DNA from: Bdellovibrionia bacterium
GTDB lineage: Bacteria; Bdellovibrionota; Bdellovibrionia; Bdellovibrionales; JAGQZY01
DNA length: 56,664 nucleotides
Direction of reading: 5' to 3'
Assembly (NCBI GenBank): GCA_030424665.1
Contig: JAUHWN010000006.1
Coordinates: 1-56,664 of the forward strand
A program made the translations under genes and the position numbers. Below, one piece after another: positions 23,892 through 26,850 of the stretch. The notes under the pieces are model-generated. The model was not told the DNA's origin. It did not search any database and was given only the letters and a program-made list of their open reading frames with translations. Every line of letters starts with the position of its first letter. Position 1 is the stretch's first letter.

Positions 23892-25220
23892 ATGATATCA
23901 AAAGCCATAAATTTAGTACTTTTCATCGCTTTACTCGGAATAGCCTACATCGTTTGGGAAGGCCTCGGATTGATGTCTGATAAAAATATCGCATCTGTAC
24001 CTGAAACGGAAGTGGAGCAGAAGCCAACTCGAGATATGGAACTCGGAACTGCTACAAAACAAAAATCAAAAAGAATTGAATCAAAGGTGATTATGAATGA
24101 CCCCGCTATGTCACAAAAGTGGGGGCTACAGAAGATGCAAGCCAAGAAAGCCTGGGACGTTTCTCAGGGAAGTAAAGAGATCATCATCGCCGTTATCGAT
24201 ACAGGAATTGATATCAATCACAAGGACCTCAAAGCAAACCTTTGGGTGAATACCGGCGAAACAGGAATTGATCCCATCACTAAAAAGGATCGTGCTAAAG
24301 ATGGGATCGATAACGATCGCAATGGCTGTATTGATGATGTTCACGGCTGTAACTTTATTACGGGAACGGGAGACCTCACTGATAATCATGGTCACGGTAC
24401 CCATATCGCAGGAATTATCGGTGCCGAAGGCGGAAACGGTTTTGGTATTAGTGGTGTGGCGCCTAAAATTAGTTTAATGATTCTTAAATACTACGACCCT
24501 AAAGCTTCAGGCGTTAACAACCTTAAAAACACAATTCGATCCATTCAGTACGCAGTCGACAAAAAAGCTCACATTATTAATTACTCTGGTGGTGGACTTG
24601 AATTTAGCCAAGAAGAATTCGATGCTGTTCAACTTGCTGCTCAAAACAAAGTACTTTTTGTGGCTGCCGCTGGTAACGAACGCTCGAACTCAGACCAAGC
24701 TAAATACTATCCGGCTGACTACGAGTTATCGAATATTATTTCGGTGACAGCCGTTGATCCAAAAACACAAGTTCTAGCCACGAGTAACTACGGTGTTTCT
24801 ACGGTGGATATCGCAGCCCCGGGGCAAGACATCTTTTCGACACTGCCCGGAAACTCTTTTGGCTTAATGACAGGGACCTCACAAGCAACTGCCTTTGTGA
24901 GTGGCGTTGCCGCCCTCGTTATGGCTAGTAACCGAGAATACTCAGCTGCCGATGTTAAACGATATATCTTAAAGACTGGTGATGAGTACCCATGGTTACG
25001 CTCGAAAACGGGAACTTCAAAAAAGCTAAATATCTATAAGGCTCTAACAACTCTCGATTCGGGCGTTTCTGCTACAGGTGTTATCGCCTCGAATGTTCAC
25101 AATATGAAGGATCAATTTGTTTCGGACCCCAATGTGAAACTTCAAACTGGCGACGCCGCCCGCGATATTGCCAATTTTGGTAAGATGCTTATGGAATCAA
25201 TGAGCAATCAGAAAAAGTAA
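23892..25220 (+). CDS. S8 subtilisin-like serine protease
   Basis: Catalytic triad VIDTG / HGTHIAG / GTSQAT, oxyanion-hole AAAGN and an N-terminal membrane anchor. Confidence 0.95.
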   Translation: MISKAINLVLFIALLGIAYIVWEGLGLMSDKNIASVPETEVEQKPTRDMELGTATKQKSKRIESKVIMNDPAMSQKWGLQKMQAKKAWDVSQGSKEIIIAVIDTGIDINHKDLKANLWVNTGETGIDPITKKDRAKDGIDNDRNGCIDDVHGCNFITGTGDLTDNHGHGTHIAGIIGAEGGNGFGISGVAPKISLMILKYYDPKASGVNNLKNTIRSIQYAVDKKAHIINYSGGGLEFSQEEFDAVQLAAQNKVLFVAAAGNERSNSDQAKYYPADYELSNIISVTAVDPKTQVLATSNYGVSTVDIAAPGQDIFSTLPGNSFGLMTGTSQATAFVSGVAALVMASNREYSAADVKRYILKTGDEYPWLRSKTGTSKKLNIYKALTTLDSGVSATGVIASNVHNMKDQFVSDPNVKLQTGDAARDIANFGKMLMESMSNQKK

Positions 25221-26394
25221 AAACTGACCCAATATATTGTGGAATCCAGATAGTCACGAATAGGTATTTTAAATGCAGTATCGCTAGTCCATGAAGAGAT
25301 ACTGCCCGAAATGCCCTCACCAGCACAGCGAAATTCGAAAACACGGATTTTTCAAACGGAAGTCCGACTATAAATTCATCCAACGGTTCATTTGCACCCG
25401 TTGTAATACCACTTTTTCAAAGGCCTCAACTCAAAAGTGTATCCACCAAAATAAACGCCATCTTAACTCCATCATCCTCAAACTCATCGCCAGTAAGAAC
25501 TCCCAACGACGAATCGCCCTCCTTTTAGGTATTAGTAAGAATACGGTCGCTTCGAAAATTAAGTTTCTAGCCAGGATAGCCCGAGAGAAAAATCGACAAC
25601 AGTTAATTCAAAGCACTTCAGCCAAAGAAATTATTTTTGATGATATGGAAACTTTTGAGCACAGTAAAATGAAACCCCTAAGCATTACGGTTGTCGTTGA
25701 AAAATACACTCAGAGAATTTTGGGTGCCAGAGCATCTATTATGCCTGCCAAAGGCTTACTTGCAAAGAGGTCTCGAAAAAAATACGGCAGAAGAAAGGAT
25801 CAAAGACACAAAACGAGAGAGCAACTTTTCCTGGATCTTAAGAGAGTTCTAGGCGCTCCAGTCACGATCGAATCCGACCAAAACCCACACTACATTAAAA
25901 CTGTTACCCGACATTTCCCCGAAGCCGACTACATCCAATATCGAGGAAGAAGAGGCTGTGTCGTTGGCCAAGGCGAACTTAAAGAAGGAGGCTTCGATCC
26001 TCTTTTCTATCTCAATCACACCTGCGCCATGATTCGAGATAACTTGGGTTGTTTAGTAAGAAGAACCTGGTGCACATCTAAAACAATTCACCACCTTCAG
26101 GATCGTCTTGATATCTACACCTACTTTCACAACACCTTCATATTAAAAAGCCGAAAGAAAGCAACCTGCCACTAGTTCATCTATAAATTGAATCAGAATT
26201 CTTTGTTTTTGAAATGAAGAGAATCATTCTTTGTGGAAAGTGTTATGGGGGTTCATTTTTAGGGCTCTTGCCAGCCGGATGCGCACTAGGCAAGAAGGGC
26301 AGGAGCCCGGCCCTATAAATGAACTCCCAGAATACTTGGAACAACTGGAATCTGATTCTCCTCATTCCACAAACACATGAATATGGGTCAATTT
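25221..26394 (+). mobile_element. IS1-like insertion sequence (boundaries tentative)
   Basis: Contains the transposase. Imperfect inverted ends AAACTGACCCA (25221) and TGGGTCAATTT (ending 26394), plus a shared TTGTGGAAT block. No clear target-site duplication. Confidence 0.55.
25291..26175 (+). CDS. IS1-family-like transposase, single ORF
   Basis: InsA-type zinc finger (CPKC...QRFICTRC), HTH (SQRRIALLLGISKNTV), acidic motifs FDDME and IESD, and C-terminal IRDNLGCLVRRTWCTSK aligning with the IS1 R..L.RL.R....SK motif. Confidence 0.8.
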   Translation: MKRYCPKCPHQHSEIRKHGFFKRKSDYKFIQRFICTRCNTTFSKASTQKCIHQNKRHLNSIILKLIASKNSQRRIALLLGISKNTVASKIKFLARIAREKNRQQLIQSTSAKEIIFDDMETFEHSKMKPLSITVVVEKYTQRILGARASIMPAKGLLAKRSRKKYGRRKDQRHKTREQLFLDLKRVLGAPVTIESDQNPHYIKTVTRHFPEADYIQYRGRRGCVVGQGELKEGGFDPLFYLNHTCAMIRDNLGCLVRRTWCTSKTIHHLQDRLDIYTYFHNTFILKSRKKATCH

Positions 26395-26400
26395 GTGAAC
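26175..26400. repeat. Long imperfect palindrome with a branched GC-rich apex
   Basis: 26238-26265 pairs with 26310-26337 (24 Watson-Crick, 2 G-T, 2 mismatches); 26211-26226 pairs with 26353-26368; AAATTGA (26185) pairs with TCAATTT (26388). Confidence 0.85.
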
Positions 26401-26481
26401 ATTCTTAAACAAAACAATCACGAACCTAGGACGACTTGACTGACCAACTAGAGTAAATTTGATTTCAGAAAGGAGATACTT

Positions 26482-26739
26482 ATGAAGAATCTTATTAAAC
26501 TAGTTATTTCAATTATTTTTATGACGAGCTTGACCGCGTGTTGGGAGTCAGAAACCGAGAATAAAATCGAAGATATTGGAGAAAATATCGAAGAAACCTA
26601 TGAAGACTCGAAAGAGAGCATTTCTGACACTGCTGAAGACGCAAAAGACAAAGTAGAAGACTGGAGTGAAAAAGGTAAAGAAAAATATAACGAAGCAAAA
26701 GAAGAAACTAAAGAAGCACTCGAAAAAATTGAAGGATAG
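26482..26739 (+). CDS. Small acidic LEA/YtxH-like lipoprotein
   Basis: Lipobox LTAC, E/K/D-rich helical repeats, AAGGAG RBS and a downstream terminator. Confidence 0.75.
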   Translation: MKNLIKLVISIIFMTSLTACWESETENKIEDIGENIEETYEDSKESISDTAEDAKDKVEDWSEKGKEKYNEAKEETKEALEKIEG

Positions 26740-26763
26740 ATTAAAGTCACCCTAAATAGAATT

Positions 26764-26795
26764 AAAAAGCCCTCACATATGAGGGCTTTTTTTTT
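26764..26795. terminator. Rho-independent terminator, probably bidirectional
   Basis: AAAAAGCCCTCA-CATA-TGAGGGCTTTTTTTTT. Confidence 0.88.
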
Positions 26796-26850
26796 GATCC
26801 GAGAGATATTTCTCCCGCTTAGCATATAAGACAACTATGACATCTCTAAA

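Follow-up and report, generated by a model that had tools for sequence, protein, structure and literature searches.

Few insertion sequences carry a conserved structured module, and in the cases that have been studied (IS110, IS605 and ISPpu9) the module is central to the working or the spread of the element. The bridge RNA of IS110 and the omega RNA of IS200/IS605 are guide RNAs of mobile elements. ISPpu9, a member of the IS110 family, carries the small-RNA module ssr9, which its authors regard as a possible selfish passenger (PMC12288879). Here we describe an IS1-type element with such a module, under purifying selection and present in 15 intact copies, in a 56,664-nt stretch of DNA from a Bdellovibrionia bacterium (the window, by which we mean the whole stretch analysed). 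The window element resembles ISPpu9 (PMC12288879) in that a structured RNA module follows the transposase gene within the element and also occurs in additional copies elsewhere, which for the window module means in other genomes. The window element differs in transposase family and chemistry, in the lack of a stand-alone module in its host genomes, in the nesting of its module within a palindrome that includes the terminal repeat, and in that no circles or joints were seen for it in a view limited to contigs.

In the fold-back directly downstream of the transposase, the right arm had been noted to resemble the sequence upstream of the gene. This likeness was confirmed (25221–25231 against 26384–26394, 91%; 25237–25256 against 26353–26372, 75%), and the two sequences are the terminal inverted repeats of an insertion sequence. 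Copies in two genomes share both ends of this complete IS1-family element, which spans 1176 bp (25220–26395, + strand). In the copy alignment, the left terminal inverted repeat (25220–25243, + strand) begins (A/T)AAACTGACCCA and is 91% complementary to 26384–26394. The right outer arm of the fold-back (26354–26395, + strand; π 0.096) is the right terminal inverted repeat; it ends GGGTCA(A/G)TTT plus one base, all copies end there, and target duplications begin directly after it. The fold-back is the non-coding right end of the insertion sequence, not a separate element. Four full copies, of 85–100% identity, were found in the genome of the window (G000) and 11 more in a second genome of the same genus (G024), and in all 15 the 294-aa transposase gene is intact. 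Seven of the 15 are flanked by perfect 9-bp target duplications and two by duplications with one mismatch; the other six, the window copy among them, have none. The fold-back was present at 16 of the 17 right ends seen, and the same right junction was found in one marine run among four DNA runs, the contigs of which yielded no joints, circles or deleted forms, a contig-level view that is uninformative on rare forms. Among 21 runs listed, no RNA run containing the element appeared. At least two pairs of copies occupy sites common to two species, with flanks 92–94% identical. One copy, on contig C38, is missing exactly the inner 127 nt of the fold-back, so that a clean short palindrome remains; because it occupies the same chromosomal site as a module-bearing G024 copy, loss of the module is a simpler account of it than an empty site. 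At the other end of the element, an 11-bp hairpin (25275–25305, + strand) presents in its loop the codon at which the transposase starts (25291) and is kept in 15 of 15 copies, despite a π of 0.39 across the remaining 5′ leader. Together, these results show that the whole insertion sequence and its fold-back transpose as one, and that the element is active-looking.

The transposase gene (25291–26175, + strand) encodes 294 aa with an N-terminal CxxC...CxxC arrangement, a weak helix-turn-helix (HTH) match and conserved acidic residues. The NCBIfam IS1 model NF033558 matched at E 7.9e-15 with 55.3 bits, over residues 5–146 alone and below its cut-off of 100, and Pfam returned weak HTH matches and nothing else; NCBI gives some of the 3746 homologues the name IS1 family transposase. 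In classical IS1, a programmed −1 frameshift links two ORFs, whereas all 15 copies here have a single 294-aa ORF and no InsA/InsB arrangement. A one-ORF transposase presumably fits the single-ORF subgroups of the family, so the lone ORF does not exclude IS1 membership. Target duplications of the IS1 family are 8–9 bp long, and the terminal inverted repeats and 9-bp duplications expected of the family are present among the 15 copies. The element resembles the single-ORF type in its CxxC pairs, weak HTH, acidic residues, terminal repeats of ~24 bp, 9-bp duplications and length of ~1 kb; it differs in scoring 55 bits against a curated cut-off of 100, with its N-terminal part alone, and in having, between stop codon and end, non-coding DNA of 220 nt that is conserved and structured, where some relatives run on for 12 nt. 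The transposase is a DDE IS1-type enzyme. Rather than unusual in kind, as had been supposed, it is a distant member of the IS1 family that has a single ORF and makes 9-bp target duplications.

A transposase-plus-RNA system, as the original prediction envisaged, would be expected to recur among homologues, and the results count against it. The module was absent from all 138 distant homologue loci, the window fold-back had no blastn match among the 3′ regions of relatives, and Rfam matched none of the 12 relatives' loci searched. Some relatives end 12 nt past the stop codon; with the 138 loci that lack the module, this indicates that IS1-type transposition can proceed without the module. That an inverted terminus copy 3′ of the stop codon might be a general trait of the clade was also considered and rejected, one of 33 relatives having it at p≤0.05. 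No intermediates between this insertion sequence (at least 88% identity) and its relatives (at most 57%) were present in genome contigs, nor in metagenome contigs, where no match exceeded 52%; that the outer palindrome came before the module is therefore an order that we infer.

The region after the transposase stop codon forms, as foreseen, one imperfect palindrome, and each structural feature that had been described there was recovered. As + strand RNA, positions 26175–26400 fold into a long hairpin with a minimum free energy of −93.4 kcal/mol (z −7.96), whereas shuffled sequences averaged −55.3 (s.d. 4.8), and none of 200 shuffles folded equally well. The − strand reached −87.0 kcal/mol (z −8.74), the + strand fold being 6 kcal/mol more stable. 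A repeat search placed the outer arms, each of 42 nt, at 26185–26226 and 26353–26394 with 76% complementarity, and the inner arms, each of 35 nt, at 26231–26265 and 26310–26344 with 80% complementarity, the latter containing the inner stem (26238–26265 with 26310–26337) that had been described from the letters. Both parts of the branched apex were likewise recovered, namely the stem in which TCTTGCC (26266–26272) pairs with GGCAAGA (26289–26295) and the side hairpin GGGC-AGGA-GCCC (26297–26308, + strand). The fold-back is two-layered. Its outer arms are the right terminal repeat and, inside the element, a degenerate copy of the final 42 nt in inverted orientation, which forms the left outer arm (26185–26226, + strand; π 0.119), begins AAATTGAATC and has TTGAATC in place of the terminal motif CTGACCC in 14 of 16 copies; at the exact centre lies a branched hairpin module of 127 nt (26227–26353, + strand; π 0.052). 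A scan of 25100–26800 for promoters and terminators found none in or adjoining the fold-back, and no sigma-70-like site 5′ of the transposase gene on the + strand; Rfam offered no credible family for the region, the best match being a plant microRNA model at E 0.25. Short ORFs in the palindrome (49 aa on the + strand, 40 aa on the − strand) were rejected as genes, one copy having a 1-nt deletion inside and other support being absent.

The fold-back is strongly conserved. Across the 15 copies, π was 0.052 in the inner module and 0.096–0.119 in the outer arms, compared with 0.39 in the 5′ leader and 0.069, 0.042 and 0.231 at transposase codon positions 1, 2 and 3, which places the diversity of the fold-back 2–4 times below that of synonymous sites. 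Two GGA sites, 25 nt apart, are invariant in all 16 insertion-sequence copies: one (CGGATG, 26276–26281, + strand) in the loop closed by TCTTGCC/GGCAAGA, the other (26302–26304) in the equally invariant side hairpin. Directly 3′ of CGGATG, six loop positions vary freely among the 16 copies, which means that homogenisation alone does not explain the low diversity. Of the 95 opposed positions in the consensus fold-back, 80 form Watson–Crick pairs, eight are G:U on the + strand and none is A:C; the G:U pairs are confined to the transposase strand (8 versus 0). Polymorphic Watson–Crick positions showed 12 changes to G:U and seven to A:C, no clear excess. For the insertion-sequence copies, an RNA-level structure is argued from this conservation and the G:U bias. 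Strand-biased mutation is another source from which a bias of this kind can arise.

We next turned to a dispersed family of branched hairpins. A covariance model, R1, was built from eight stand-alone copies in a genome located through a shared 19-mer (G026), with no insertion-sequence copy in the seed. Searched against the 56.6 kb window, R1 returned the module as its sole match, full-length and with the same helices (26239–26338; 38.9 bits, E 6.1e-7, model positions 1–120), which makes the module a member of the family. In the stand-alone copies, the homologue of the first GGA loop is the GGA-bearing loop of hairpin P2a, and that of the side hairpin is hairpin P3. In G000 and G024, R1 matched the insertion-sequence copies and nothing else. 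Larger surveys found stand-alone copies in at least 15 of 116 genomes of one order and matches in at least 7 of 151 genomes of the window's own order, G024, with its insertion-sequence-borne copy, counted among the seven; these tallies are lower bounds, because the stricter filters used there missed even the window's own copies. Seven unrelated GC-rich genomes that the 19-mer scan also returned had no wider similarity and were set aside as chance matches. In 44 stand-alone copies, aligned by fitting to the model and therefore leaning towards structure and G:U, 95.9% of cells pair versus 63.5% in shuffles, and the covariation score was 0.724 versus 0.163, matched by none of 500 shuffles. Covariation had been proposed as the check on the structure; it is evident in the stand-alone copies, where 44 of 46 pairs show compensatory changes, but not in the insertion-sequence copies taken alone, where one of 84 predicted pairs does.

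The stand-alone members are dispersed intergenic repeats of 100–170 nt in other Bdellovibrionota, 87–94% similar, without the ends of the insertion sequence and often just 3′ of genes. Relative to the upstream gene, 24 are co-oriented and 13 opposite; the next gene is convergent in 26 of 40, with its stop codon within 5 nt of the element in about 16. This placement looks as compatible with a DNA insertion preference as with a 3′UTR element. As dispersed intergenic hairpin-forming repeats of 100–170 nt, they recall REP/REPIN, ERIC and Correia-type repeats and MITEs. Unlike MITEs, they showed no terminal inverted repeats with direct target duplications, and unlike REP/RAYT systems they have no consistent link to a Y1 (RAYT-like) gene: PF01797-like (Y1) ORFs occur in four of five genomes tested, yet one lay near a copy, 86 nt away, at one of the 14 copy-bearing places in G026, and G080 has 11 family-model matches and no Y1 match. 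The strand-specific, branched apex with its conserved loops further separates the family from REP/REPIN, ERIC and Correia repeats. Rfam did not match the stand-alone locus searched (L152), and no usable empty site was found for a stand-alone copy, the relatives of G026 being distant, with flanks 65–72% identical. The dispersed branched-hairpin family is previously uncatalogued.

The reading that we favour, and hold to be an evenly balanced proposition, is that the fold-back forms the non-coding 3′ end of an apparently active IS1-family element in which a family hairpin, nested in a terminal-repeat palindrome, would work as folded RNA; judged from sequence, it is probably a captured structured module that acts as RNA. 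The fold-back is neither a guide RNA nor, in G000 and G024, a separately mobilised MITE. It had been proposed that the transposase is paired with a structured RNA or acts on a REPIN/MITE-like substrate, and this is borne out in part: the fold-back is a conserved, structured and functional-looking part of the transposon, with its core in a REP/MITE-like hairpin family, but a substrate or guide role is unsupported. In neither host genome does it occur apart from the transposase gene (all five inner copies in G000, by blastn at word size 7, and all 12 fold-backs in G024 belong to insertion-sequence copies), so a separately mobilised substrate is unsupported; its two ends are the true right end and the degenerate inverted copy of that end. 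That the transposase might choose its target or donor through a programmable, bridge-like RNA we consider scarcely credible. Like the bridge and omega RNAs, the fold-back is structured non-coding sequence inside the element, beside the transposase gene, and one loop segment varies. Yet that loop is not guide-like, since the variant ACCTGG sits with three different target duplications, and the AT-rich 9-mers used as targets are diverse, as is typical of an IS1-type enzyme. There is no programmable loop or relation to the target, the enzyme belongs to another class (DDE, IS1 type), the module is missing from the transposase homologues (138 of 138 distant loci), and its family also lives without a nearby transposase. 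An unlikely but more substantial alternative treats the module as selfish: a small mobile or repeat element would have landed centrally in an older terminal hairpin and would now spread along with it as a hitch-hiker, at no benefit to the transposase. The conservation of the module would then reflect its own requirements. In favour of this, the family exists as dispersed stand-alone copies (87–94% similar), the module sits exactly central in the outer palindrome, the C38 copy lacks precisely these 127 nt, the distant relatives of the insertion sequence do without it, and ssr9 of ISPpu9 is a printed analogue (PMC12288879). Against this, the module has not spread alone in G000 or G024, since no stand-alone copy exists there, C38 is better explained by loss, and the outer arms, which lie outside the family model, are conserved too (π 0.10–0.12 versus 0.23).

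A function in DNA, with the inverted copy of the right end and the palindrome serving as an extra transposase-binding site or as a hairpin or cruciform that aids or restrains synapsis and cleavage at the right end, is in our judgement improbable. The left outer arm is indeed an inverted copy of the last 42 nt, terminal repeat included, and the 8:0 G:U bias also fits single-stranded DNA, G:T being the best-tolerated mismatch in DNA hairpins; the one G026 place with a Y1-transposase-like ORF at 86 nt and the palindromic flanks that extend beyond the model in seven of 42 stand-alone copies (mean 7.1 versus 5.95 in controls) point the same way. However, CTGACCC is degenerate in the internal copy, one relative in 33 has an inverted terminus copy after its stop, G080 combines 11 family matches with no Y1 match, and a symmetric DNA site leaves strand-specific conserved GGA loops on covarying stems unexplained. 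To our knowledge, moreover, hairpin substrates have not been reported for IS1-type DDE enzymes. Far less probable still is a neutral relic, left for example by a nested MITE or by an inverted duplication that arose by accident, and under no selection: the fold-back is specific to one lineage and its core was lost in one copy, but its diversity is 2–4 times lower than that of synonymous sites over 15 copies, at least two pairs of copies persist at sites shared by two species, and the GGA sites are invariant beside loop bases that vary freely.

In the composite anatomy shown here, the outer arms are the right terminal repeat paired with its internal inverted copy, and the core is the branched family hairpin, a long covarying stem with two small hairpins that display GGA. 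Under the favoured reading of a captured module acting as RNA, it is the transposase-sense strand of the module that would fold and act in single-stranded form, most probably as the 3′UTR of the transposase mRNA. The two GGA loops may bind a CsrA-type protein, the long duplex may be processed, or both, and by either route the state of the cell would influence what becomes of the transposase mRNA; a benefit to the insertion sequence and mere hitch-hiking of the module are both allowed. In the stand-alone family, GGA occupies both hairpin loops in 35 of 41 copies, with closing stems that covary, and the loops read CA(N)GGAUG. The CsrA SELEX consensus is RUACARGGAUGU with GGA in a hairpin loop, and the dimer of CsrA is able to span sites 10–63 nt apart (PMC7652899); by that consensus, the loops and the spacing of the sites agree in sequence with those of a CsrA-binding RNA. 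Compared with CsrB, RsmY, RsmZ and mRNA leader sites as described there (PMC7652899), the module likewise presents GGA in the loops of short hairpins, its closing pairs covary, its loops fit CA(N)GGAUG and its two sites fall within bridging range. It is unlike these RNAs in having two sites alone, set on a stem of 25–100 bp and dispersed like a repeat, in that no promoter or terminator of its own was found, and in the lack of an Rfam match.

The module resembles a docking site for CsrA, an RNA-binding regulator. A wider proposal, tentative and rather doubtful at present, is that the hairpin is a new class of CsrA-binding RNA, spread like REPs or MITEs across Bdellovibrionota, often directly behind stop codons, and captured in this genus by an IS1-family element that, with each jump, would multiply the sites or couple its own transposase mRNA to CsrA. 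If the CsrA link were true, it would point to a candidate, concrete and open to test, for the CsrA-binding RNAs of these predators and would be an example of a transposon that spreads regulatory RNA sites; even if it fails, the structured repeat and its capture by a transposon still make a clean new case. The gene csrA is single-copy in all five genomes tested (contig C215:4570–4725 in G000), which permits binding but does not show it. A 3′UTR is an unusual place for CsrA control and counts against the CsrA reading.

The region after the stop codon of the transposase gene (25291–26175, + strand) forms one long imperfect hairpin at 26175–26400, as the original prediction had it. As + strand RNA it has a minimum free energy of −93.4 kcal/mol, against a mean of −55.3 (sd 4.8) for shuffled sequences (z −7.96; 0 of 200 as stable), and the − strand gave −87.0 kcal/mol (z −8.74). 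A repeat finder returned outer arms at 26185–26226 and 26353–26394 (42 nt, 76%) and inner arms at 26231–26265 and 26310–26344 (35 nt, 80%). The predicted branched apex is present, with a loop closed by TCTTGCC/GGCAAGA and a GGGC-AGGA-GCCC side hairpin, and so is the likeness of the right arm to sequence upstream of the transposase: it pairs with 25221–25231 (91%) and 25237–25256 (75%). The right arm is the right terminal repeat of an insertion sequence.

Searching the window's own genome (G000; 260 contigs) yielded four full copies of this element (100, 93, 87 and 85% identity), all covering 25220/25221 to 26394/26395, and further fragments at contig ends. In a second species of the genus (G024) there are 11 full copies, and contig ends truncate two more; the transposase protein had no match in a third species, G025, whose genome is 81% complete. 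Target duplications of 9 bases are perfect in 7 of the 15 full copies, have one mismatch in two and are absent from six, the window copy among them. The shared copy ends and the duplications define an element of 1176 bp, whose terminal inverted repeats start with (A/T)AAACTGACCCA and finish with GGGTCAGTTT(A); insertion sequence and fold-back transpose as a whole unit. All 15 full copies (loci L015–L040) keep the 294-aa ORF. Its protein matches the NCBIfam IS1 model in the N-terminal part only and below the cut-off (E 8e-15, 55 bits; cut-off 100 bits), has 3746 homologues in the database, among them entries named IS1 family transposase, and bears conserved CxxC pairs and acidic residues. What had been taken for an unusual transposase thus belongs, as a distant single-ORF member, to an ordinary family; the insertion sequence as a whole adds a new member to a known family.

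The fold-back itself is composite. In G000, blastn (word size 7) placed 5 of 5 matches to its inner 124 nt inside insertion-sequence copies, and in G024 the 12 fold-backs adjoin insertion-sequence copies, 11 of them full and one at a contig end, so that the search for stand-alone palindromes found none in either genome. At the right end of G000 contig C38, exactly 26227–26353 is missing and the outer arms abut in a short clean palindrome. The right flank there is the same chromosomal site as that of a G024 copy holding the inner part, so loss from C38 would be the simpler reading of the sequences. Across the 15 full copies, nucleotide diversity (pi) is 0.069, 0.042 and 0.231 at codon positions 1, 2 and 3, a strong signature of purifying selection on the transposase ORF; in the fold-back it is 0.119 for the left outer arm, 0.052 for the inner 127 nt, 0.018 for the left inner stem and 0.096 for the right outer arm. 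Six loop positions directly 3′ of an invariant CGGATG vary freely, and the copies are therefore not simply homogenised. The fold-back is under purifying selection. Predicted-paired columns are less variable than unpaired ones (0.047 versus 0.174), a contrast with some circularity, since variable columns are less readily called paired, and covariation is almost absent from these close copies (compensatory change in 1 of 84 pairs). Copies at sites common to both species differ by 5–12% and their flanks by 6–8% (one flank, 0.4%), and the insertions are old yet intact. With 15 intact copies and at least two pairs at common sites (flanks 92–94% identical), they are unusually long-lived for insertion-sequence copies.

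The core of the fold-back belongs to a wider hairpin family. When one genome per species was scanned for an exact 19-mer of the apex, G024 matched 12 times and eight other contigs also matched, seven of them by chance in GC-rich genomes. The eighth comes from a metagenome-assembled genome of Oligoflexia (G026) and shares the architecture, though its stems differ. Searching G026 for the motif returned 10 matches, of which one is a truncated copy and one lacks a visible hairpin, versus 0 for the reversed control. A covariance model, R1, built from 8 G026 copies only, matched the window once in 56.6 kb, at 26239–26338 on the + strand (38.9 bits, E 6.1e-7, full model length). R1 found only insertion-sequence copies in G000 and G024 (5 and 11, respectively) and, in G026, 14 distinct places plus weaker reverse-strand shadows. 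Members occur in at least 15 of 116 genomes of the G026 order, with up to 14 matches per genome, and, in the window's own order, in at least 7 of the 151 genomes sampled, mostly singly, including G024 (insertion-sequence-borne) and G003 of the window's own family; both counts are lower bounds, as stricter filters lost even the window's own copies. The family is not in Rfam 15, and a full-text literature search found no description of it, which does not by itself prove that none exists.

Covariation was assessed on 44 stand-alone copies aligned to R1, a fitting that favours structure. Paired cells amounted to 95.9% versus 63.5% in shuffles, compensatory changes occurred at 44 of 46 pairs, and the covariation score was 0.724 versus 0.163 (0 of 500 shuffles attained it; slid controls ≤0.135). 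Model fitting notwithstanding, the outer stem shows all four Watson–Crick pair types at nearly every position. The architecture comprises a stem of at least 25 pairs, above which one or two hairpins lie within a TTCTTGC/GCAAGAA stem, together with a further side hairpin. GGA lies in the loops of the first hairpin and the side hairpin in 35 of 41 copies, with covarying closing stems; the loops read CAUGGAUG, CAGGAUG, CAAGGAG or GCAGGAGC. By sequence these are candidate CsrA sites, fitting the SELEX consensus RUACARGGAUGU, in which the bases on either side of GGA close a hairpin loop around it; one CsrA dimer is able to span two sites separated by 10–63 nt (PMC7652899, excerpt). Insertion-sequence copies have two invariant sites with a spacing of 25 nt, CGGATG (26276–26281) and AGGAG (26301–26305). 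All five genomes tested have one csrA each. CsrA of B. bacteriovorus is reported to be functional, and its targets to be little known (PMC13443453, 2026, excerpt).

In the consensus fold-back, 80 of 95 opposed positions are Watson–Crick and eight are + strand G:U pairs; A:C, which the − strand would show as G:U, does not occur. Polymorphisms at Watson–Crick positions lead to G:U in 12 cases and to A:C in seven, a weak bias; on the R1 strand, G:U is commoner than A:C, at 60 versus 14 in total and 17 versus 5 within the outer stem, in a model-fitted alignment that favours G:U. The fold-back counts favour folding of the transposase-sense strand, as RNA or single-stranded DNA, and strand-biased mutation could also have produced the bias. 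We consider the chances about even that the module acts as a folded RNA of the transposase-sense strand, probably at the 3′ end of the transposase transcript, where it would work through its GGA loops and/or the long duplex. Alternatively, it may be a selfish passenger of the insertion sequence, as has been proposed for ssr9 in ISPpu9, a printed precedent from another family for capture of a structured module (PMC12288879, excerpt). It may also be a neutral relic, a reading disfavoured by the diversity among the 15 copies. The data contradict a guide RNA with the variable loop as guide: the element inserts at diverse AT-rich 9-mers, and copies sharing the loop variant ACCTGG have three different targets.

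A DNA-level role in transposition is a further possibility, and the gene orientation and flanks of stand-alone copies do not fit a simple RNA story. Around 40 of them, by crude stop-to-stop ORF calls, the 5′-side gene is co-oriented in 24 cases, opposite in 13 and absent in three; the 3′-side gene is convergent in 26, about 16 of these with a stop codon ≤5 nt from the element. In 7 of 42 copies, at least 10 of the next 14 flanking bases continue the palindrome (mean flank pairing 7.1 versus 5.95 for re-paired flanks). In five loci (L222, L213, L226, L219 and L214) it runs at least 12 bases past the family model, and the extra arm of L222 is an inverted duplicate of the neighbouring gene's last codons and stop codon. 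Such flank palindromes hint at a fold-back copying step at insertion. Together with the gene setting, they suggest that insertion or copying takes place at the DNA level and either targets or creates palindromes directly behind genes; in the fold-back, the outer arms could have arisen in this way from the final 42 nt of the insertion sequence. One stand-alone family member (L245; G153 contig C80:5238–5337) lies just downstream of a putative tRNA-gene 3′ end, a T-arm-like sequence of which an inverted partial copy lies on the element's opposite side. The most degenerate hairpin of G026 (L202/L315; contig C19:89666–90461) is separated by 86 nt from an ORF of 196 aa that weakly matches a Y1 transposase (PF01797, 28 bits). 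Because such an ORF neighbours only 1 of 14 G026 places and another genome, G080, has 11 family-model matches and no Y1 match, no RAYT link can be claimed. Of the predicted REPIN/MITE-like substrate, the dispersed hairpin family stands; stand-alone copies in G000 and G024 do not.

Among distant relatives of the insertion sequence (44–57% protein identity), the right-end motif was recognisable in 42 of 73 loci. From stop codon to element end these measure 12 nt in five, 39–227 nt in 36 and, doubtfully, 303 nt in one; in three G003 copies the element ends right after the stop codon. The varied distances indicate that lineage-specific inserts in the stretch from stop codon to right repeat are tolerated in this clade. 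The fold-back had no blastn match in the distant loci, no R1 member was found among 78 + 60 loci of such relatives, and an inverted terminus copy is not general (1 of 33 at p ≤ 0.05). In that stretch, a GC-rich hairpin module of 50–90 nt is common to L077, L090, L134 and L113, four relatives in different assemblies (blastn E 2e-9 to 5e-6); it is unlike the fold-back, has no R1 match and carries GGAUG-like motifs on the reverse strand. This slot seems to collect structured inserts in the clade.

A canonical bidirectional intrinsic terminator follows a small ORF (26482–26739) at 26764–26791, with a 12-bp stem and A and T runs on both sides; ordinary terminators are therefore present in this genome, and the fold-back is built differently. 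At the other end of the element, an 11-bp hairpin (25275–25305; arms GCAGTATCTCT and AGAGATACTGC) carries the start codon of the transposase in a loop of 9 nt, with no Shine–Dalgarno-like sequence upstream of that codon. Its non-coding 5′ arm is conserved in all 15 copies, and the 5′ leader around it varies more than any other part of the element (pi 0.39); the hairpin probably serves translational control of the transposase. Upstream, a subtilisin-like protease ORF (23892–25220) has its stop codon (25218–25220) overlapping the first base of the insertion sequence, and the end of the protease gene may have been altered by the insertion or by recombination between copies at a later time.
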